DNA from: Candidatus Edwardsbacteria bacterium RifOxyA12_full_54_48
GTDB taxonomy: Bacteria; Edwardsbacteria; AC1; EtOH8
Assembly: GCA_001777915.1 (NCBI GenBank)
Contig: MFFN01000004.1
Coordinates: forward strand, 425,744 to 489,743
DNA length: 64,000 bases
Reading direction: 5' to 3'
Shown piece by piece: positions 17,144 through 58,852 of this stretch; the stretch's first letter is position 1; each line of letters begins with the position of its first letter. A model generated the notes under the pieces. It was not told the DNA's origin and made no database searches. It worked only from the letters and a program-made list of their open reading frames with translations. The translations under genes were made by a program, and so were the position numbers.

Positions 17144-18214
17144 TTACTTTACCCTGTAAACCCAACCGTATTTATCCTCTTTCTCTCCATATTGTATTCC
17201 GGTCATGGTATCGAAGATTTTTTTTGCCCACGGCCCTGTCTCTTGTGAGATGACATATTCCTTGTCTTTATAATTGATCCTGCCCACCGGGCTTATCACC
17301 GCCGCGGTGCCGGCGCCAAAAGCCTCGGTGACTTTTTTACTATTGATGCCATCCATCAGCTCATCGATCGGGATCTGCCTTTCCTCGGGAACGATCCCCA
17401 GGTCTTCAGCTATCTGAAGCACCGATTTGCGGGTGATGCCCTGCAGGATGCTTCCGGAGAGTTTTGGAGTTACCAGCTTGTTGTCGATTACGAAAAAAAT
17501 ATTCATGGCCCCCACTTCTTCGATATATTTGTGCTCCACAGCGTCCAGCCACAGTACCTGGCTGCAACCCTTGTCCTTGGCAATTTTGGAAGCCAGCAGG
17601 GTGCCGGCATAATTCCCGCCGGTCTTGGCCTCGCCGGTACCCCCCTGGGCTGCCCTGGTGTAGCTGTCGCTGACCCACAGCCCCACCGGGTTGAAACCCT
17701 CCTGAAAATATGGCCCCACCGGAGAAAGGATGATGAAGAAAAGATACCGGTCGGCGGGCTTCACCCCCAAAGCGGCCTCGGTGCCGATGACAGCCGGGCG
17801 GATATATAAAGAGGCCCCCACGGCCTTGGGGATCCACCGTTCCTCAAGCCTGAGCAGCTCGCCTTCGGCCTGCAGAAAAATCTCCTCTGGGATTTCCGGC
17901 ATGCACATTCTTTTAAGGGAGTGGTTAATGCGCCGGGCGTTTTCCTGTGGTCGAAACAATAGAATCTCATCCTTGGGGGACTTATAGGCCTTTTGTCCTT
18001 CGAAAACCTCCTGGCTATAGTGAAGAACATTGGCGGCGGGATCAAGCAGCAAGGGCTGATAGGGTTTTATCTCGGCATTGTGCCAGCCCTTATCAACAGT
18101 ATGTTCCATGGTGAACATGTAATCGGTGAAATTTCTTCCGAAAACCAGTTTTAGAGGATCTTGAAATAAGGGTTTCAGCTTATCTACCGATAACAGCGTC
18201 TTTTTGATATCCAT
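17144..18214 (-). CDS. ilvE: Branched-chain amino acid aminotransferase
   Basis: Fold-type IV aminotransferase features: N-terminal FTDYMF...HYSQEVFEGQKAYK and C-terminal GTGEAKTGGNYA / EAFGAGTAAVISPV regions. Length 356 aa. Confidence 0.85.
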   Translation of the reverse strand: MDIKKTLLSVDKLKPLFQDPLKLVFGRNFTDYMFTMEHTVDKGWHNAEIKPYQPLLLDPAANVLHYSQEVFEGQKAYKSPKDEILLFRPQENARRINHSLKRMCMPEIPEEIFLQAEGELLRLEERWIPKAVGASLYIRPAVIGTEAALGVKPADRYLFFIILSPVGPYFQEGFNPVGLWVSDSYTRAAQGGTGEAKTGGNYAGTLLASKIAKDKGCSQVLWLDAVEHKYIEEVGAMNIFFVIDNKLVTPKLSGSILQGITRKSVLQIAEDLGIVPEERQIPIDELMDGINSKKVTEAFGAGTAAVISPVGRINYKDKEYVISQETGPWAKKIFDTMTGIQYGEKEDKYGWVYRVK

Positions 18215-18316
18215 CGCCCGCTCCCGTTTAATTAATGCATTAGGTACATATCATAGATTACCAGATGATGAAAAAAATTTCAAGTAAATAATTTGGTGAT
18301 ATCTTTAAAAACAATG

Positions 18317-18853
18317 CTATTGTTTTGCAACGAACTCAATGCCGCCAAAGACCACCGCTGCATGGATCAGCAGGTGCTTCTCTGCACTTTTGAAATTCTC
18401 TGTTTTATATGTGTATTGCCCGAAGGCCACCACATTGCCGTCCGGCAGGTGGGCCCCGCCAAAGGCCGAACTGGCGACGATCTTGGTGGGAATGGCGGGA
18501 TCGATCTTAATTACCGACCCGCCGAAGATGGTGTTGATATCCACCCTAACATTCTGATCCTTAAGCTCTATGCCAGAAAGATCGATCTCTCCCTTGCCAA
18601 AGACCACATCATACTTATCCGCGGCCGTGATAACTTCGATGGCCTTTTCCTCGAATACCGCCGATTTTTTGCTTTTGCTCCAAAAGGAGATCCCGGTCAG
18701 CATCTGAATGCCCAGATAGATCAGGGACAGGGCAAATATGGTCCTGAAGATGGGTATCTTTATCCCGAACACCACATTGATTATCACGCCCAAACCTATC
18801 AGGATAAGAACCACCCCCCAAAAGACGCCGGTAAAAATAAACCCCATTCTCAT
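18317..18853 (-). CDS. Membrane protein with LiaF-like / DUF2154 C-terminal domain (cell-envelope stress family)
   Basis: Two N-terminal TM helices, then a beta-rich C-terminal domain (GEIDLSGIELKDQNVRVDINTIFGGSVIKID) resembling LiaF C-terminal domains. Confidence 0.45.
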   Translation of the reverse strand: MRMGFIFTGVFWGVVLILIGLGVIINVVFGIKIPIFRTIFALSLIYLGIQMLTGISFWSKSKKSAVFEEKAIEVITAADKYDVVFGKGEIDLSGIELKDQNVRVDINTIFGGSVIKIDPAIPTKIVASSAFGGAHLPDGNVVAFGQYTYKTENFKSAEKHLLIHAAVVFGGIEFVAKQ

Positions 18854-19036
18854 AACCTCCTCCTTATATTTAATAGATTATTTTTTTGATGCACGGCAAC
18901 CCTACCGGAATTGTAAATCTCTTGCTGAAAAAAGTCAACGATAAAATATTTGGGGAATATCACCGTAAGCTGGGCAAATTTGCAACTGTTTTATAACTAT
19001 TAAAAAATAGTATTTGACGGGATTTGGGTTTGGGGC

Positions 19037-19052
19037 TGTTTCACGTGAAACA
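19037..19052. other. parS: parS centromere-like site (perfect match to consensus TGTTTCACGTGAAACA)
   Basis: 16-bp perfect palindrome identical to the canonical ParB-binding parS consensus. A parB gene lies 17 kb downstream in this window. Confidence 0.8.
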
Positions 19053-19056
19053 ATAA

Positions 19057-19085
19057 CTCCCCTGCGGCCTCGACCGCAGGGGAGT
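19057..19085 (-). terminator. GC-rich hairpin between the two parS sites (possible terminator of the 19153..19350 gene)
   Basis: CTCCCCTGCGG cctcga CCGCAGGGGAG inverted repeat (11-bp arms). Only a weak U tract follows on the - strand. Confidence 0.35.
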
Positions 19086-19112
19086 TAAACGGCAATGATT
19101 TGTGTTGTCTGG

Positions 19113-19136
19113 GGAATGTTTCACGTGAAACATTCC
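19113..19136. other. parS: parS centromere-like site (core 19117..19132 = TGTTTCACGTGAAACA, extended to a 24-bp perfect palindrome)
   Basis: GGAATGTTTCACGTGAAACATTCC. The core is identical to the parS consensus. Centre is 80 bp from the first site. Confidence 0.8.
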
Positions 19137-19152
19137 GTATTGGGGGGCCGGT

Positions 19153-19350
19153 TTATCTCTGCTCCGGGTTTTGCTCCCTTATGGCATACGCCAACTGTTG
19201 TCGGTTAATGCACCCCATCTCCACCAAGCACTCGCCGATCTTTTTTGAAGAATCGTTGATTTGTTTATATCTGGCCCGGATTATGTGTTCCACCGAGATG
19301 AATCCATGGGTCATCATTATTTCACCCAGCAGTTTTTTGTTCCTTTTCAT
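19153..19350 (-). CDS. 65-aa stand-alone MshEN-like (T2SSE_N-type) domain protein, candidate c-di-GMP receptor
   Basis: Two tandem 24-residue motifs, LLGEIMMTHGFISVEHIIRARYKQ and KIGECLVEMGCINRQQLAYAIREQ, 5 residues apart, fit the MshEN motif RLGxx(L/V/I)(L/V/I)xxG(L/V/I)(L/V/I)xxxxLxxxLxxQ. Confidence 0.5.
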   Translation of the reverse strand: MKRNKKLLGEIMMTHGFISVEHIIRARYKQINDSSKKIGECLVEMGCINRQQLAYAIREQNPEQR

Positions 19351-19362
19351 GGCTGCGTCCTT

Positions 19363-20478
19363 TTAAAAATTATAATTAATCCCAGCATATGCCAGGAGTT
19401 TTTTATAATTATAAAGCTCATCATTGGATGAATTATTGACATAATTAATCCCCGCCCCCAAATCTATGCCGTTGGGGCCATCTGACAACGGAGCGGTGTA
19501 GTCTATTCCCAAAACAGTCTCTCGGTCCAGCCGGACGGTCCCCAAACTTTGTCTGGTTAATATGCTGGCATTGTCCGCTGCCGGAAGGCTATAGGCATCA
19601 AGCTTGTCATAGCTTCTGCTGATATAATTGGCCCATAAGGCCATCTTCCCGGCGGGTTCAAGTATTAAAGTTACTTTTGCCCCCACCTGGCCGCCGGAAT
19701 AATCAAAATATTCGTTCACCTCGCTCAGTAAAGTGTCGGGCATATAATAAGGATCGGCGGTGGTCACCTGGTTTGTTAAATACGAGCATTCCAGGGAAAG
19801 GCCGATATTTGATCCAAGCCCCTGGCTTACCCGGCAACCCGGAGACAGGTTTGTAATATTCACTGGAACCTGGCTGTCGGCAGGCAAGGGAGAGAAATCG
19901 TACTTTTTATATCCTGCTAAAATTGTCAAACCGCTCCGGGTAGGAAGAAATATATTTATGGATAGGTTTGCTATTGATTGATCAAAGTCATATTTTGGTA
20001 AATTCTTATATTGATATCTCCCCAGGGCCCCGTCCGCTTTTAACAGCACCGGTTGAGCAATATATATTTTTGTCTCGCCGATAACTTTAAAATTATTGGT
20101 ATCATAAGCCGAGCGGTCCGCAGCATTGAATTGAAAGCTATAAGCGCCACCCAAACCAACGAAACCATCTTTTCCCAAATTCCGCCACAGGATCATTTTC
20201 AGCAAATGGTCGTTTTGATTGATGCCCAAATAACTGAGGTAGGCGCTGTAGCTGCCGGAATAATCAGCTCCCAAAATCATCCCGGCCAATTTTAAGTCAA
20301 TGTCGGTGTTAAGATCCAACCGGGCGGTTCCGACCACGCTGCCTCCGCCGTAGGAATCGTTATAGGCATTGCTGTCGTATTCGCCGCTCACCCCGATGCT
20401 TCCTTTGATCTGGGCAAATAAGGTTCCTGATAAAACTATTGTGATTATCCCGGTAATATAGAATTTTAAATTCCTCAT
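19363..20478 (-). CDS. Outer-membrane beta-barrel protein of unknown function
   Basis: Signal peptide MRNLKFYITGIITIVLSGTLFA. Alternating amphipathic beta-strand pattern. C-terminal ...YAGINYNF with terminal Phe typical of OMPs. Confidence 0.55.
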   Translation of the reverse strand: MRNLKFYITGIITIVLSGTLFAQIKGSIGVSGEYDSNAYNDSYGGGSVVGTARLDLNTDIDLKLAGMILGADYSGSYSAYLSYLGINQNDHLLKMILWRNLGKDGFVGLGGAYSFQFNAADRSAYDTNNFKVIGETKIYIAQPVLLKADGALGRYQYKNLPKYDFDQSIANLSINIFLPTRSGLTILAGYKKYDFSPLPADSQVPVNITNLSPGCRVSQGLGSNIGLSLECSYLTNQVTTADPYYMPDTLLSEVNEYFDYSGGQVGAKVTLILEPAGKMALWANYISRSYDKLDAYSLPAADNASILTRQSLGTVRLDRETVLGIDYTAPLSDGPNGIDLGAGINYVNNSSNDELYNYKKLLAYAGINYNF

Positions 20479-20561
20479 GGTTGGTCTTCCTTAAAGATGA
20501 TGTCACAAAGCAAGAGAAGCGCAGGTAAATAAGGTCCTGCGCTTCATTATTAAGTGCCTAT

Positions 20562-21068
20562 CTATCGGCCCCGCCCGGTGGTTGTGCTGCCGCCCTTCTT
20601 GCCATTGGCTCCGCCTTTGGGCGTCATATCATCATCCTTTCCGTCCTTTTTACGGGTACGGGTTCTGGTCTGCTCCTTGGTCTGGGTGGAATCGGATATA
20701 CCATCTCCATCCTCGTCCCGATATCTGGTCTGGGTCATTTCGCCCTGGCCCTTGTCGCCTTCCTCGGTGCGAGTGCGGATCTTCTGGTCCTGGCCTTTAT
20801 TCTGGGTGCGGACCTTGTTTTGTTCCTTTACCTTAGCAGAGTCGCTCTCCGTCAATTTCTTCTCTTCCCTGGTTCTGGTCTGGGCCATCTCGCCTTGTCC
20901 ATTTTGGCCCTCTTCAGTTCGAACCCTCAATTGGGTCTCCTCGCCCTGATTTTTAGTTTTGATCTCATTTTTCATTTTCAGACTGTCGCCCTCTTCAGCC
21001 AGGGCCACTGTGGTCAAGGCTAGAGAAAAAATTAAGACCGGCAGCAAAAGCATGATGAATTTCTTCAT
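20562..21068 (-). CDS. Small secreted low-complexity protein with K/T/E/Q/G-rich internal repeats
   Basis: Signal peptide MKKFIMLLLPVLIFSLALTTVALA. Repeated units ...RTEEGQNGQGEMAQTRTREE... / ...RTEEGDKGQGEMTQTRYRDED... KGG-type ending (TPKGGANGKKGG). The DNA is correspondingly repetitive. Confidence 0.5.
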   Translation of the reverse strand: MKKFIMLLLPVLIFSLALTTVALAEEGDSLKMKNEIKTKNQGEETQLRVRTEEGQNGQGEMAQTRTREEKKLTESDSAKVKEQNKVRTQNKGQDQKIRTRTEEGDKGQGEMTQTRYRDEDGDGISDSTQTKEQTRTRTRKKDGKDDDMTPKGGANGKKGGSTTTGRGR

Positions 21069-21285
21069 TTTATGAACCTCCTTATAAATTGCGGTTTGAT
21101 GGCCAGTTTCTGTTTTGTCATATTACATTAGAGTTGCCCATTATTAATAAGGTTCCCAAACATAATTATAACATTAATATTGATATTAGACAATCAATAT
21201 GATATCATGGCTTAGGTGTAGTTAATATGTTTTTTGAGTATCTCTAACTAATTGTATCGCATTGTATTATAAATATTATTAGTTT

Positions 21286-23211
21286 ATGAACAAAACATTC
21301 GATATCATAATCATTGGCGGGGGCCATGCCGGCATAGAGGCATCGGTAGTTTGTACCGGCATGGGGCTGAATACTGCTCTATTCAGCATCACCCTGGACC
21401 GTATCGGCTGGATGTCATGCAATCCGTCAATCGGCGGATTGGCTAAAAGCCATCTGGTAAAAGAGATCGATGCTCTGGGCGGAGCCATGGGCCGGTTGGC
21501 CGATTTGTCGGGGATACAGTTCCGAATGCTGAACAAAGGCAAAGGGCCTGCGGTCTGGTCTCTCAGGGCTCAATGTGACCGCCCGCTTTATTCGGCCGAA
21601 GCCAAGCATCTTCTGGAGAACCTGCCTAATTTAGAGCTGCGGCAGGCCTTGGTTGATGACATTATATTAGAGGAGCGGTCCGGCAAAAAGTGTGCGACCG
21701 GCGTGAGGACCGAAAGCGGCCAGGAGTTTTTTGCCCAGGCCGTGATCGTGGCCACCGGCACTTTTCTTAACGGTCTGATCCATATCGGAGACCGGTCCTT
21801 TCCGGCCGGCCGGGCCGGGGAATTCCCGGCCCGAAAATTATCAGATTCTCTAAAATTATCCGGGCTGAAGATGGGCCGGCTGAAGACCGGAACCCCGGCC
21901 CGGGTTAATTCTCAAAGCGTAGACTTTTCTGCAATGTCCGAACAGCCCGGCGACCCCGACCCGCTCCCCTTCTCCCGGCAGACCAGGATTTACGAGGTCA
22001 TCAATCAGCGCACCGATCAGAAAAGAAGGGTCTGGCCGGCGCTGCTTCAGATTCCCTGCTACCTTACCTACACCAACCCCGTAACCCACCAGATCATCCG
22101 AGACAATCTTTCCCGCTCGGCCCTTTATTCCGGCCGGATAACAGGCATCGGCCCCAGATATTGCCCCTCTATCGAGGACAAGGTGGTTCGCTTCTCCGAG
22201 CGACAGGGACATCAGGTTTTTATCGAGCCCGAGGGCCTCAATACCAATGAGCTGTATCTTAACGGCATCTCTTCCTCCCTGCCCGAGGAAGTTCAGGAGA
22301 AGATGATCCGCTCCATAAAAGGCCTGGAGAATGCTAAAATAACCAGGTCGGGCTACGCCATAGAATATGATTTTGTTTTTCCCACCCAGTTGTTTCCCAC
22401 CCTTGAGGCCAAACTGGTATCCGGGCTGTACCTCGCCGGGCAGATCAACGGCACTTCGGGATATGAGGAGGCCGCGGCCCAGGGGCTGATGGCCGGGATC
22501 AATGCTGCTCAAAAGATTTTAGGGAACGATCCCTTCATTCTGCGAAGAGACCAGGCCTATATCGGAGTTTTGATAGATGACCTGGTCACCAAGGGAACCG
22601 AGGAGCCATACCGGATGTTCACCTCCCGGGCCGAATACCGGCTGTTGCTGCGTCAGGACAACGCCGAGCAAAGGCTTCTGGCTTATGGTTATGGCCTGGG
22701 TCTTATCGCCGAGGATAGGTGGGTCGATTTCCAAAGGACCCAAGGCAGAGTGGAGTCTGAAATCCAGCGTCTTCGTCTGGAAAAAGCCCTGCCGCCGGAT
22801 GCCAATGGTATTCTTGAGAGACTGGGAACCTCGCCCATCAGCCAGCCAGCCAGCCTGGCCGAATTATTGAAACGTCCCGAGGTGACTTACGATGATCTAC
22901 TGCCCTTGGACCAGTACCGCCCGGATTACGACCGGACGGTTTTTGAAAAGGTGGAGTTGGAGCTTAAATACGGCGGATATGCCAAACGCCAGCAGGATGA
23001 GGCCCTGAGGATGAGGGGGCTGGAAAATATGGTGCTGTCGAACGACTTCGATTACGATCTGGTTTATGGCCTTTCCTCCGAAGCCCGCCAGAAACTGCAG
23101 AAACTTAAACCCCTCAGCCTGGGCCAGGCCTCGAGAATATCGGGCGTGTCCCCGGCAGATATTAGTATGCTGCTGATTCACCTGAAGAAGGCAAAACCTG
23201 CTGCCCATTAA
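21286..23211 (+). CDS. mnmG: tRNA uridine 5-carboxymethylaminomethyl modification enzyme MnmG (GidA)
   Basis: FAD-binding N-terminus [16 protein letters not shown]. Conserved MnmG length (641 aa) and C-terminal [17 protein letters not shown] motif. AT-rich promoter region upstream. Confidence 0.9.
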
Positions 23212-34240: not shown

Positions 34241-35011
34241 ATGTCGCGCATCATCGCCCTGGTCAACCAAAAAGGAGGCGTGGGAAAGACCACCTCGTCC
34301 ATCAACCTGGCGGCCTCGCTGGCCGTGCTGGAGAAGCCCACTCTGTTGGTGGACATCGACCCCCAGGCCAACGCCACCAGCGGGCTGGGCATAGACAAAA
34401 GCACGGTGGAAAGCGGCATCTACGACGTGCTGTTGAACGAGGTGCCCATCAATGACATAATTGTCCGGACCCAGCTGGACAAGCTGCATCTGGCGCCGTC
34501 CCAGATAGACCTGGCCGGGGCCGAGGTGGAGATGGTGGGAATGGAGGGCCGGGAGAATCTCTTGAAGCCCCACCTGGAAGCCTTGCGCGACAGGTACAAA
34601 TACATCCTGATAGACTGCCCGCCCTCGCTGGGCCTGCTGACCATCAACGCCCTGACCGCGGCCGATTCGGTGCTGATACCCATTCAGGCCGAATACTACG
34701 CCCTGGAGGGCCTGGGCCAGCTGCTGAACACCATCGACCTGGTGAAGAACAGCCTCAATCCGGAATTGGACATCGAGGGCATCCTGCTGACCATGTTCGA
34801 TTCCCGCCTCAACCTGGCCCAGCAGGTGGCCGGGGAGATAAAAAAGCACTTTCCGGAAAAGGTCTACGAGAACTTCATCGCCCGCAGCGTCCGGATAGCC
34901 GAGGCTCCGTCCCACGGCAAGCCGATCATATTATATGACGTCAACTCCAACGGCGCCCAGAGCTACCTAGCCCTGGCCAAAGAGGTGGCCGCCCGGAGGG
35001 GCGCGAAATGA
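34241..35011 (+). CDS. parA: Chromosome-partitioning ATPase ParA/Soj
   Basis: Deviant Walker A KGGVGKTT. Conserved ParA blocks (YILIDCPPSLGLLTINALTAADSVLIPIQAEYYALEGL). Length 256 aa. Confidence 0.9.
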   Translation: MSRIIALVNQKGGVGKTTSSINLAASLAVLEKPTLLVDIDPQANATSGLGIDKSTVESGIYDVLLNEVPINDIIVRTQLDKLHLAPSQIDLAGAEVEMVGMEGRENLLKPHLEALRDRYKYILIDCPPSLGLLTINALTAADSVLIPIQAEYYALEGLGQLLNTIDLVKNSLNPELDIEGILLTMFDSRLNLAQQVAGEIKKHFPEKVYENFIARSVRIAEAPSHGKPIILYDVNSNGAQSYLALAKEVAARRGAK

Positions 35012-35033: not shown

Positions 35034-35669
35034 ATGAATAAAAGACCCTTTTCCGGCCTTCGTTCAATAGCCGCAATGATGGCCCTGGCGGTCATCATCC
35101 CGGGATGCGCCACATTGACCCAGATGGCTGGGGCGCTGTCCAACCTGCAGCGCCTGAAGTTCAAGGTGGCCGGGGTGGCCGACTTCACGGTGTCGGGCAT
35201 CGCCATCGCCGGCAAGCAGAAGATCGGTGATTTCACCCTGCTGGACGGGATCAACCTGATGGCGGCCTACCGCAGCAGGAAACTGCCGGCCGGGTTCACC
35301 CTCAACATCGAGGCGATCAATCCCAACGACGGCACCGGGGGCTCGCCCCAGACCAGCTCCACCCTGACCAGCTTCGAATGGCGCCTGCTGATAGACGACA
35401 AGCCCACCGTCTCCGGCAATATTGCGAGGCCCATCGAGATCCCCGGCACCGGACAGTCGGCGGCCATCCCGCTGCAGATAAGCCTGAACCTGGTGGAGTT
35501 CTTCGGGGAGAAGGGATACAACGACCTGCTGAACCTGGCCCTGGCCTTGGGCGGGGCCCAAAGCGACATCAGCCGTCTGGCCATAGACGCCCAGCCCCGG
35601 GTCAGCACCCCGCTGGGCGAGATCACCTATCCCGGGCGGATCACCATAGTATCCCAGGAATACAGATAA
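35034..35669 (+). CDS. Lipoprotein, possibly LEA_2/WHy (LEA14-like) family
   Basis: Lipobox AVIIPGC. Beta-rich sequence with ...NIEAINPND... and ...FEWRLLIDDKPTVSGNIARPIEIPG... resembling LEA14-like desiccation-related proteins. Family call is tentative. Confidence 0.4.
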   Translation: MNKRPFSGLRSIAAMMALAVIIPGCATLTQMAGALSNLQRLKFKVAGVADFTVSGIAIAGKQKIGDFTLLDGINLMAAYRSRKLPAGFTLNIEAINPNDGTGGSPQTSSTLTSFEWRLLIDDKPTVSGNIARPIEIPGTGQSAAIPLQISLNLVEFFGEKGYNDLLNLALALGGAQSDISRLAIDAQPRVSTPLGEITYPGRITIVSQEYR

Positions 35670-35679
35670 AGGAGCATCA

Positions 35680-36243
35680 ATGAACGTAAAGGGAACCGCA
35701 CTGGCGGTGCTGCCGATCTTCATCGAAAGCAAATTCGGCAAAGAAGGACTTAACAAATGGCTGGAATCGCTGAACACCGAGGCGGTGGCCTTGTACCAGG
35801 AGGCCAACACCATCAAGCTCAACCAGTGGTACCCTTTAAAGGAAAGCTACCTGGAGCCCACTGCGGCCCTGTGCGAGCTTTTTTATGACAACGATCCCAA
35901 AGGAGCCTGGGAGGTGGGCCGGTTCAGCGCCGACTATGCCCTTAAAGGCGTATACAAAGCCTTCGTCAAAATGACCTCGGTCAGCTTCTTCATCAAACGG
36001 GCCAGCCTGCTGATGACCACCTACTACCAGCCCAGCACCATGGAGCTCAAATCGTCCACCTACAGCCAGGCGGTCCTGCACATGACCGAATTTCCCGAGG
36101 CCCACCACCTGATAGAATCGCGCATCGGCGGCTGGATCCAACGCTCCCTGGAGATCCACGGCTGCAAGGAGGTGGCGGTGGAGACTACCAAATCCCTGGC
36201 CGACGACGATCCCCACACCGAATTCATTTTAAGCTGGAAATAA
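35680..36243 (+). CDS. Hypothetical cytoplasmic protein (187 aa)
   Basis: Protein-like ORF with RBS context, 10 bp after the preceding gene. No family recognised by eye. Confidence 0.45.
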   Translation: MNVKGTALAVLPIFIESKFGKEGLNKWLESLNTEAVALYQEANTIKLNQWYPLKESYLEPTAALCELFYDNDPKGAWEVGRFSADYALKGVYKAFVKMTSVSFFIKRASLLMTTYYQPSTMELKSSTYSQAVLHMTEFPEAHHLIESRIGGWIQRSLEIHGCKEVAVETTKSLADDDPHTEFILSWK

Positions 36244-36272: not shown

Positions 36273-37151
36273 ATGACCGCACAGAAAAGAGGCCTGGGAA
36301 AGGGCCTGTCGGCCCTGATCCCGGCCAAGAAGACAGCCGCACCGGTGACCCCGCATCCCGAGGGCATCGAGCGCTTTTTAAAGCTGTCCGAGATCAAGCC
36401 CAACCGCTTCCAACCCCGCCGCTCTTTCCGGGAGGCCGAGCTGGCCGAACTGATGGACTCCATCAGGGAGAAGGGGATCATCGAGCCGGTGATCGTCCGC
36501 CGCAGCGGCTCCGGATACGAGCTGATCGCCGGGGAGCGGCGCCTTAGGGCCTGCCAGAAGCTGGGCCAGGAGAAGATCCCGGCCATCATCCGCCAGGCCG
36601 GCGACCAGGAGGCCCTGGAGATAGCGCTGATAGAGAACATCCAGCGGGAGAACCTCAATCCCATCGAGGAGTCCCGGGGCTACGAGCGGCTGGCCAGGGA
36701 GTTCAGCCTGACCCAGGAGGCTTTGGCCAGGAAGGTGGGCAAGGAAAGATCCACCGTGGCCAACAGCCTGCGGTTGCTGGCCCTGCCGGAAGAGATCCAA
36801 AAAATGCTGGAGGACGATAAGTTGACCGCCGGGCACGCCCGGGCCCTGCTGACGGTCAGCGACAGGCGAAAACAGCTGTCCCTGGCCCAGACCATAATCT
36901 CAAAGGGCCTGTCGGTCAGGGAGGCCGAAGTTCTGGCTAAGGGGGAGCCGGTCAAATCGTCCCTCACTTCTCCCAAAACACCCCGGCAATTGGACCAGCA
37001 CCTGACCAACATCCAGAACGAGATCCAGCGGGCCTTGGGCACCAGGGTGCGGATAGTGTCCCAGGGAAAGAACAAGGGAAAGATCGAGGTGGAGTATTAT
37101 TCGGCCGATGATTTCGAGAGGATCCTGCAGAAGCTCAGTATCAAGCTATAA
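36273..37151 (+). CDS. parB: Chromosome-partitioning protein ParB/Spo0J
   Basis: LGKGLSALI opening. ParB box GERRLRA. HTH region ([25 protein letters not shown]). Confidence 0.9.
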
Positions 37152-52348: not shown

Positions 52349-52614
52349 TGTGGAAAACCTTGTGGATAACTTACCCCCAACGGTGTTTCGTATTAAGTCC
52401 TTGTTAAATCAAAAATTAGCCACAATTCTGGTTGTGTGGATAAACAATAAATAATCATTTAGATATTTATGTTAATTGTTCTATTGCAATGCATTATGCT
52501 GATTGACCACCTGTGGATAAATATGTTAAGAACCCGTAAATAGCGTTACCAGTAGTATATTAACTAGCAACCCTCAACAACCATTAAAAACACTGACTTT
52601 CTGATTGTGGATAT
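52349..52614 (+). other. oriC: DnaA-box cluster (candidate oriC / dnaA autoregulatory region)
   Basis: Three perfect TGTGGATAA boxes (complement of TTATCCACA) at 52361..52369, 52435..52443 and 52512..52520. One-mismatch boxes at 52349..52357 (TGTGGAAAA) and 52606..52614 (TGTGGATAT). All same orientation. AT-rich stretch 52440..52500. Directly upstream of dnaA. Confidence 0.7.
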
Positions 52615-52617
52615 CCT

Positions 52618-53958
52618 ATGAATCAACAAATACAAGCGCTGTGGGCCCAGTCCCAGGACAGGATCAAGGAACGGATAGGTTCCCAGAGTTTTGACACCTG
52701 GATAAAGCCGCTGACAGCCATGACGGTGGGCGATGACAGCCTGACCCTAAAGGTTCCCAACCACTTTTTTGTGGAATGGCTGGGGCAGCACTACCTTAAT
52801 ATGATGAAAGAGGTGGTTTCGGATATCTTTCATAAGCCCCTCTCCATAGTCCTGGTCCCTCCGGTGGGGGAAACTCAGGCCGCCGCCCGCCAGAAACCGG
52901 ATAGAACCGAATTTGTCCCGGCCCATCCGACCAGCGATAGCGGCCTCCGGGAGAGATATATCTTCGACACCTTCGTCATAGGAAAAAGCAACGAGTTCGC
53001 CTACGCCACCGCTTTCGCCACCGCCCAGGATCCCGGAAAACTGTACAACCCGCTGTTCATCTATGGCGGGGTGGGGCTGGGAAAGACCCATCTGATGCAG
53101 GCTATCGGCCATTTTACCAAGAGCAAGAGACCAAAGGCCCGGGTGCTGTACATACCGGCCGAGAATCTGATGAACGAGCTGGTCTATGCCATTCAGAACC
53201 GCAAGATGCTGGAGTTCAAAAATCGTTATCGTTCGCTGGATATCCTACTGCTGGACGATGTCCAATTCCTGTCAGAAAAATCCGGCCTGCAGGAGGAGAT
53301 CTTTCATACTTTCAATTCGCTGTACGACGCCCGCAAACAGATCGTCCTGACCTCCGATCGGCCGCCCAAGGATATATCCCACCTGGAGGAGCGCCTGGTA
53401 TCACGCTTTCAAAGCGGACTGGTGGCCGATATTCAGGCTCCGGACCTGGAGACCAGGGCGGCTATCTTAAAGAAAAAAGCCGAGTTGGACGGCCTCTCCA
53501 TTCCCAACGACGTCATCTATTTCATTGCCTCCTCGGTCAAATCAAACATCCGTGAGCTGGAGGGTTCATTGATAAGGGTAGTGGCCTTTTCCTCGGTGTC
53601 GGACCAGGAGCTGACGGTGGATTTCGCCCGCGAGGTCCTTAAGAACATCATCTCCCAGAAATCACGGCTGATATCCATCGAACTTATTCAGAAAATAGTG
53701 GCTAACTACTATTCCATACCCGAAGAGGCCCTCAAATCAAAAAGGAGGATCAAAAAACTGGTGCTGCCCAGGCAGCTGGCCATGTATCTGAGCCGGGAAC
53801 TGACCGCCGCCTCCCTCAACGACATCGGCAACCGCTTCGGCGGAAAGGACCACACCACGGTGCTGCATGCCATATCAAAGATAAAGAAAATGATAGCCTC
53901 GGACGATGAGATAACCTCTCAGGCCGATAGGATAACTGAGTTGATCAATGGTGGATAG
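52618..53958 (+). CDS. dnaA: Chromosomal replication initiator protein DnaA
   Basis: AAA+ Walker A GGVGLGKTHL, Walker B LLLDDVQFL, sensor/box VII, C-terminal DNA-binding helix (LSRELTAASLNDIGNRFGGKDHTTVLHA). Confidence 0.92.
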   Translation: MNQQIQALWAQSQDRIKERIGSQSFDTWIKPLTAMTVGDDSLTLKVPNHFFVEWLGQHYLNMMKEVVSDIFHKPLSIVLVPPVGETQAAARQKPDRTEFVPAHPTSDSGLRERYIFDTFVIGKSNEFAYATAFATAQDPGKLYNPLFIYGGVGLGKTHLMQAIGHFTKSKRPKARVLYIPAENLMNELVYAIQNRKMLEFKNRYRSLDILLLDDVQFLSEKSGLQEEIFHTFNSLYDARKQIVLTSDRPPKDISHLEERLVSRFQSGLVADIQAPDLETRAAILKKKAELDGLSIPNDVIYFIASSVKSNIRELEGSLIRVVAFSSVSDQELTVDFAREVLKNIISQKSRLISIELIQKIVANYYSIPEEALKSKRRIKKLVLPRQLAMYLSRELTAASLNDIGNRFGGKDHTTVLHAISKIKKMIASDDEITSQADRITELINGG

Positions 53959-57844: not shown

Positions 57845-58852
57845 ATGTCTGACATTAAAACAGCGGTAGTGGGCTGCGGCCAGTGGGGCATCAACCAGGT
57901 CCGGACCTATGCCAATCTGCCCGGGGCTTATTTGGCCTGGCTGGTGGACGCCAGCCCCAAAAATCTTCAGCGGGCAAAAAGCTTCTCCCCGACCGCCAAA
58001 ACGTCCGGGGACCTTAAAGCGGCCCTGGAAGACAAGGATCTCGATGCGGTGGTGATCGCCACCAATTCCGAATCGCACCACGCCCTGGCCAAAATGTCTT
58101 TGGAGGCCGGCAAGCACGTGATGGTGGAGAAGCCCCTGGCCCTGAATGTCAAGGACGCCGAGGAGCTGGTGAAGATCGCCAAGGACAAAGATCTGATATT
58201 GATGACCGGCCACCTGCTGCTGTACCATCCGGCGGTCAGGTATTTGAAGGAGCTGGTGAAATCCGGCGAGCTGGGGCAGATACTGTACCTGTACTCCACC
58301 CGGGTCAACTTGGGCGCCATCCGCAAGAACGAGAACGCCCTGTGGAGCCTGGCCCCCCACGACATCTCGGTGATGCTCTATTTGATGGACCAGAACCCGG
58401 ACCAGGCCCTGGCCAACGGAAAATGCTTCCTGCAGAAGGGCATCGAGGACGTGGTGTTCTTCTCGCTGGATTTCCCCGGCGGGCAGGTGGCCCAGGCCCA
58501 GGTGAGCTGGCTGGACCCCCACAAGATCCGCAAGTTCACGGTGGTGGGCAGCAAGAAGATGGTGACCTTCGACGACATGGAGGCCACCGAGAAGATCCGG
58601 ATCTACGACAAGGGGGTCAACCAGGAGAAGCGCTACGGCAGCTATGACGAGGTGCTGACCCTAAGGGACGGGGATATCCACATCCCGTATTTCAAGATGC
58701 AGGAACCGCTGAAGATAGAGGCCAATCATTTCATCGAATGCGTCAGGGAACACAAGCAGCCCATAAGCGACGGGCAGAACGGGCTGGAGGTGGTGAAGAT
58801 CCTGGCGGCGGTGAGCCTTTCGCTGAAAGAGGAACGAGCGGTCAAAATATAG
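57845..58852 (+). CDS. Gfo/Idh/MocA-family NAD(P)-dependent oxidoreductase (sugar-nucleotide dehydrogenase-like)
   Basis: Rossmann opening KTAVVGCGQWG. Conserved EKPLAL motif. Family-typical C-terminal alpha/beta domain. 335 aa. Confidence 0.8.
   Translation: MSDIKTAVVGCGQWGINQVRTYANLPGAYLAWLVDASPKNLQRAKSFSPTAKTSGDLKAALEDKDLDAVVIATNSESHHALAKMSLEAGKHVMVEKPLALNVKDAEELVKIAKDKDLILMTGHLLLYHPAVRYLKELVKSGELGQILYLYSTRVNLGAIRKNENALWSLAPHDISVMLYLMDQNPDQALANGKCFLQKGIEDVVFFSLDFPGGQVAQAQVSWLDPHKIRKFTVVGSKKMVTFDDMEATEKIRIYDKGVNQEKRYGSYDEVLTLRDGDIHIPYFKMQEPLKIEANHFIECVREHKQPISDGQNGLEVVKILAAVSLSLKEERAVKI

Follow-up and report, generated by a model that had tools for sequence, protein, structure and literature searches.

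A predicted chromosomal centromere of two parS sites around a likely operon terminator in Candidatus Edwardsbacteria

What role might two identical palindromes play when they are set close together in the chromosome of an uncultured bacterium, on either side of a GC-rich hairpin? The question is raised by a 64-kb stretch of DNA from Candidatus Edwardsbacteria (hereafter the window, meaning the whole stretch that was analyzed), in which the 16-mer TGTTTCACGTGAAACA is present as exact copies at 19037-19052 (parS-1) and 19117-19132 (parS-2). The initial annotation had counted two copies with centers 80 bp apart, the second lying within a 24-bp perfect palindrome, and our exact-match scan bore out both points; the longer palindrome, GGAATGTTTCACGTGAAACATTCC, occupies 19113-19136, and the layout of 19037-19136 is TGTTTCACGTGAAACA-A-TAACTCCCCTGCGGCCTCGACCGCAGGGGAGTTA-...-GGAATGTTTCACGTGAAACATTCC. 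Both copies match the 16-bp palindromic parS consensus TGTTNCACGTGAAACA perfectly. When up to three mismatches to TGTTTCACGTGAAACA were allowed, these two sites alone matched in the window, against a chance expectation of 0.09, and none of 100 shuffled sequences reached two matches. A scan with up to five mismatches found nothing further that resembled parS in the window, and TTCACGTGAA was confined to the two sites (CACGTG occurs five times in total), in agreement with the earlier claim that the 64 kb hold no other such sequence. The survey was carried 9.5 kb past the left end of the window and 9.3 kb past its right end using two loci from one 294-kb contig (L130 and L131, whose overlaps with the window are identical), and no third parS with up to three mismatches was found in the resulting ~83 kb.

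The plainest alternative would be that the copies are chance palindromes or belong to a dispersed REP/MITE-like repeat, for which nothing speaks beyond the palindromic nature of the sequence itself. Chance was rejected on the expectation and the shuffles given above, and a dispersed repeat was rejected on copy number, as the 16-mer is present twice and the hairpin once in the window. Just two copies were found in ~83 kb, and the pair is kept at the same syntenic spot in related loci, where the protein encoded beside it can be as little as 38% identical. We regard this alternative as almost certainly wrong.

The window also encodes canonical ParA and ParB proteins. The parA gene (34241-35011, plus strand), ~15 kb from the parS pair, encodes a Soj-type ATPase with AAA_31/CbiA domains and the sequence KGGVGKT, while parB (36273-37151, plus strand), 17 kb from the pair, encodes a protein with ParB_N, HTH_ParB, and ParB_C domains, a GERRLRA motif, and residues of the type that specify parS. 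This ParB passes the TIGR00180 parB_part model, and its nearest relatives of solved structure are Thermus Spo0J (1VZ0, 1.4e-58) and the Caulobacter ParB-parS complex (6T1F, 4.4e-54). Noc is a ParB paralog in Firmicutes, and NBS is a 16-bp palindrome related to parS. The window ParB has a high raw score with the Noc model TIGR04285 (249.7), which is nevertheless below the cut-off of 315. The residues that contact parS have been listed, with R173 and G201 specifying parS and Noc carrying Q and R at these positions (PMC7383237), and we placed them on the window ParB through a gap-free alignment to 6T1F. The protein retains the equivalents of Q162, G170, K171, R173, N178, G201, and R204; S172 alone is changed, to E, and the variable positions 179 and 184 hold S and A. 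Thus, a Noc/NBS system was rejected: positions 173, 179, 184, and 201 of the window protein are R, S, A, and G, with R173 and G201 in place of the Q173 and R201 of Noc and no lysine at 179 or 184, and the DNA matches parS and not NBS.

The surroundings of the pair are those of a replication origin. A cluster of six boxes resembling TTATCCACA (three perfect, three with one mismatch) at 52349-52614 is likely to be oriC; it is directly followed by dnaA (52618-53958) and then by dnaN, and lies with dnaA 33 kb from the parS pair. The mnmG/gidA gene (21286-23211, plus strand), a classical marker of the origin region, is 2.2 kb away. The distances of 15 kb to parAB and 33 kb to the DnaA boxes, and the position of parB at 36.3 kb, had all been given correctly in the initial annotation, as judged by coordinates. 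Its proposal of an origin-proximal segregation region is supported by parAB, by the DnaA boxes and dnaA at 33 kb, and by mnmG at 2.2 kb, and its identification of the 16-mer as canonical parS by the perfect consensus match, the encoded ParA and ParB, the DnaA boxes, and the syntenic conservation described below. The cumulative G-C curve reaches its minimum at 58,085, a position that is weakly informative over 64 kb; it is about 5.5 kb to the right of the DnaA-box cluster and may be noise over such a length. The longest contig carrying these genes measures 1.62 Mb.

We therefore consider it very probable, judging from sequence, that the locus is a chromosomal centromere made of two predicted ParB-loading sites, with the intrinsic terminator of the neighboring operon between them. 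The steps that follow are taken from the established ParABS mechanism. A dimer of ParB would recognize each palindrome by its helix-turn-helix; bound at parS, it would take up CTP and form a closed clamp that slides onto the flanking DNA. ParA would then move the ParB-DNA complex, which would probably also load SMC-ScpAB, and the two adjacent sites may simply represent two loading points. The likeness to the ParB/Spo0J parS systems of Bacillus subtilis, Caulobacter crescentus, and Thermus thermophilus (tGTTNCACGTGAAACa) is close, as the 16-bp palindrome is identical, its position is origin-proximal near mnmG/gidA, parAB, and dnaA, and the window ParB agrees with theirs in its domains, its CTP-binding motif, and the residues that specify parS. 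The differences are that the host belongs to an uncultured phylum (Candidatus Edwardsiibacteriota), that the sites are 15-17 kb away from the par genes with none inside or beside parB, and that parA and parB are split by two unrelated genes. One or several parS near the origin are the rule in bacteria and the sites tend to cluster, the reason for the close clustering being listed as an open question (PMC7333895).

The hairpin between the two sites (19054-19087, minus strand) had been described with an 11-bp stem. The hairpin is present, but its stem is longer, with 14 perfect pairs (19054-19067 with 19074-19087), or 15 when one G-T pair is counted. The terminator scan scored it on the minus strand only, with 15 pairs (9 G-C), a 4-nt loop, and the tail TTGTTTCACG, and the folding energy of the spacer is -29.5 kcal/mol. 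As T-tail, the hairpin has TTGTTTC, which coincides with the start of parS-1 (the TGTTTC of the site, preceded by a T); the U-tract is short. On its own strand, the hairpin follows a stop codon at a distance of 66 nt, and the two flanking genes, both on the minus strand, point the same way as it does. The scan reported three terminator-like sites in 2 kb as compared to 2.5 expected from shuffles, and its own count is thus not significant; the terminator call is instead supported by the long stem, its orientation, and its conservation among related loci. Because no further copy of the hairpin sequence was found in the window, it does not belong to a REP family. Together, these features suggest that the hairpin is most likely a Rho-independent terminator of the upstream minus-strand operon (20478-19153), separate from the centromere. 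With its GC-rich stem of 14-15 bp, short loop, T-rich tail, and co-oriented gene, it resembles other intrinsic terminators; it differs from them in that its short U-tract comes from the first half of a predicted ParB-binding site.

Along the minus strand, the order of elements is the stop codon (at 19153), 20 nt, parS-2, 25 nt, the terminator stem-loop, parS-1, ~100 nt, and a promoter-like sequence, TTGACT-17-TACAAT (18910-18938, minus strand), for the following gene on that strand. As its U-tract, the terminator would use the T-rich beginning of parS-1 (tTGTTTC). If so, parS-2, which lies between the stop codon and the terminator, would be part of the transcribed 3' UTR, whereas parS-1, the distal copy with respect to minus-strand transcription, would be in the untranscribed gap ahead of the promoter at 18938-18910.

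The minus-strand RNA can also be folded so that one parS copy pairs with the other and the hairpin lies inside, at -54.2 kcal/mol and with a z of -6.85, values which would favor an RNA element, namely, a structured 3' UTR in which the copies pair in the transcript. This long-range stem is trivial, because two copies of any palindrome are mutually complementary, and a working terminator would end the transcript inside parS-1, in which case the stem cannot form. A search of 18000-21500 against Rfam with E values up to 1 returned no RNA family. The conservation follows the exact DNA consensus of ParB and not base-pairing covariation: we found no covarying substitutions between the copies, and those with mismatches in five related loci (L003, L004, L005, L007, and L009) are uncompensated. 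On the grounds of the trivial fold, the empty Rfam search, and the lack of covariation, an RNA motif was rejected as very unlikely.

The operon that ends at the parS pair comprises three ORFs on the minus strand. The first (20562-21068) encodes 168 amino acids of low complexity with no family match; it has a signal-peptide-like N terminus and a highly charged body of repeats (…TRTEEG.(N/K)GQGEM.QTR…). The second (19363-20478) encodes a 371-aa outer-membrane beta-barrel-like protein, which has no Pfam match, carries the UniRef name [quoted passage not shown] and served as our synteny anchor. The third (19153-19350), the final gene before the parS pair, encodes 65 amino acids with little beyond an MshEN-type motif and would be a stand-alone c-di-GMP-binding motif protein (NCBIfam NF053729, 42.4 bits, cut-off 38). 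Downstream of the pair, the next gene (18317-18853, minus strand) encodes a membrane protein with a LiaF-like_C domain, whose score of 27.2 bits is just below the Pfam cut-off of 29. Sequences identical to the 371-aa protein and to ParB are present in Candidatus Edwardsbacteria MAGs (e.g., OGF05620.1 and OGF05602.1), and the homolog search with the 371-aa protein returned Edwardsbacteria, TA06, and unclassified MAGs only. The 2-kb bin that holds the parS pair (18001-20000) has the lowest G+C content of the window, 44.8%, most other bins being at 49-62%; other low bins, at 47-48%, are found at 30-34 kb.

The conservation of the pair was followed in nine related loci (L001-L009), whose 371-aa proteins are 84-38% identical to the window copy. 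In all nine, the genes run in the order FecR/OmpA protein, mnmG, a 170-aa ORF, the 371-aa ORF, and the small ORF where present; the latter (63-74 aa) is found at the same place in L001-L007 and is absent from L008 and L009, while an ORF of 147-175 aa occupies the position of the 168-aa ORF in all relatives. Right after the operon, at the same syntenic spot, every one of the nine loci carries two parS with zero to two mismatches, and no additional parS was found within 11 kb. In an alignment of the ten regions, the two 16-mers alone are invariant, the mean column identity being 54%. Invariant 16-mers in such diverged surroundings are what selection acting on the sites themselves would leave. 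The distance between them varies: start-to-start spacings of 53, 68, 71, 73, 77, 80, and 95 bp were observed in the relatives, and a role for helical phasing was rejected, since the spacing ranges over 53-95 bp without a kept phase. The 24-bp palindrome around parS-2 is kept in L001, partly in L003, and is absent further out; as it is retained in the closest relatives only, it is not a defining feature.

The gene downstream of the pair varies among the relatives (LiaF-like, other ORFs, or an aminotransferase), while the parS pair persists. This bears on the possibility that the pair acts mainly as a ParB-dependent operator for its neighbors, the LiaF-like gene or the downstream aminotransferase, and not as a centromere. 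Precedents come from Pseudomonas aeruginosa, in which parS-bound ParB reportedly represses adjacent promoters, and from Streptococcus pneumoniae, in which it is said to affect competence genes. Three of the relatives (L005, L008, and L009) have a sigma-70 promoter at or near consensus beyond the distal parS, and in two of them this promoter begins 13-16 bp past the site. These two (L008 6207-6235 and L009 6236-6264) read TTGACA-17-TATAAT or TTGACT-17-TATAAT and drive a class IV aminotransferase gene; bound ParB would sit just upstream of the -35 element. In the window, by contrast, the promoter-like site is ~100 bp from parS-1, and the persistence of the pair while its downstream gene changes speaks against this reading. 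Moreover, the 83 kb around the origin contain no alternative parS that could be the centromere, and regulation of neighbors would be a side effect compatible with a centromere role. Thus, a main function as operator appears unlikely, while a regulatory side role on neighboring promoters is possible by analogy with the systems named above.

We return to the centromere reading and to the question of whether the hairpin belongs to it. Eight of the nine relatives have a strong hairpin between the sites, with differing sequences: CTCCCCTGCG... is shared by the window, L001, and L003, whereas ACAGACCCGTTA is found in L004, AACACCGAAC in L005, TTGAGCCCCCGG in L007, and stems of the GGGCG type in L008 and L009. 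Between the window and L003, the base of the stem shows compensatory changes from AA/TT to GG/CC. In six of the ten sequences (the window, L001, L003, L004, L005, and L007), the stem lies 0-2 nt from the distal parS and the tail is tTGTTTC, while in L008 and L009 the hairpin adjoins or follows the proximal parS and has a T-run of its own. In L006, the terminator is placed ahead of both parS sites, which shows that hairpin and sites are separable. The terminator scan called the hairpins of L005 and L009 terminators on the transcribed strand; those of L004 and L007 were below its threshold for the number of T residues.

These positions could indicate that terminator and centromere form a selected, functionally linked unit in the Edwardsbacteria/TA06-like lineage. 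Two variants are conceivable, in which either the terminator set against parS-1 would stop RNA polymerase from stripping ParB off its loading site, or ParB on parS-1 would form a roadblock and thereby reinforce a terminator whose U-tract is weak. Such a unit would account for the close approach of hairpin and distal parS in the six sequences despite their differing hairpins, for the abutment on the proximal parS in L008 and L009, and for the rarity of hairpins between paired parS in other phyla (see below). Other points speak against it. Any operon is expected to end in a terminator, and the 20 bp that separate parS-2 from the stop codon leave no room for one; the conserved position can be explained by plain descent, with the stem drifting through compensatory changes; and, with parS as U-tract, adjacency is needed for termination alone. 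The terminator of L006 precedes both sites, and neither the spacing (53-95 bp) nor the helical phase is conserved. No specific link between parS and a terminator was found in the literature. We therefore hold the linked unit, with both variants taken together, to be a doubtful though not negligible proposal. If it were true, one parS copy would be shielded from transcription, or ParB clamps would reinforce termination, while the other copy is transcribed.

The arrangement of two sites bracketing a hairpin had been called unusual, a claim that we compared with other bacteria by a pattern scan in which each species was represented by a single genome and two perfect parS with a spacer of 40-70 bp were sought. 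Such a pair was present in at least 120 genome stretches, which come from many phyla; among the matches listed were Actinomycetota (Collinsella, Streptomyces), Bacillota including Lachnospiraceae, Chloroflexota, Acidobacteriota, Pseudomonadota, Spirochaetota, Fibrobacter, Paceibacterota, and others. Close parS pairs are thus common, and those of other bacteria resemble the window pair in having perfect copies at a separation of 40-70 bp. A terminator-like hairpin within or abutting the spacer was detected by a crude script in ~16 of 140 pairs among the matches listed, several of the ~16 being the parS palindrome itself, as compared to eight of the nine Edwardsbacteria/TA06-like loci. Of this geometry, the close pair itself is therefore common, whereas a hairpin between the sites is uncommon, yet conserved in this lineage. 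The scan also returned regular arrays of three to five perfect parS with a period of ~56-70 bp in Lachnospiraceae, Paceibacterota, Eubacteriales, and Gordonibacter (L107 6466-6693, L073 1473-1842, L064 7282-7498, L083 1608-1835, and L124 1682-1821).

As a predicted centromere, the parS pair marks the position of the segregation origin on a Candidatus Edwardsbacteria chromosome and points to the universal parS/ParB system, with an unchanged 16-bp site, in a candidate phylum, as would be expected. It can also help in annotating genomes and in setting the orientation of MAG contigs. The order parS-terminator-parS-promoter, which is conserved in the lineage, may offer a natural test case of the coexistence of transcription with ParB loading.

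Several features of the wider region deserve mention. The parA and parB genes are not adjacent, being separated by two ORFs (35034-35669 and 35680-36243). The former encodes a 211-aa lipoprotein-like product with a signal peptide ending in ...IIPGC, and the latter a 187-aa protein of a conserved family with 58 matches in Edwardsbacteria, WOR-3, and one Bacteroidales MAG; neither had a Pfam or NCBIfam match. There is no case for regarding these ORFs as partition accessories, as the distant homologs of the 187-aa protein are not beside par genes. An ORF for an adenosine-specific kinase (PF04008; 37108-37686, plus strand) shares 44 bp with the 3' end of parB when read from its first ATG; because the Pfam match begins at residue 38, its true start is probably further downstream. 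Last, a gene for ScpA, the SMC kleisin, is located ~2.3 kb past the right end of the window (L131 15297-16049, or ~66.3 kb in window coordinates), about 14 kb to the right of dnaA, and the genes after it encode an M23 peptidase and a TPR protein; the ScpA, M23 peptidase, and TPR genes adjoin the parS locus in L007 instead.
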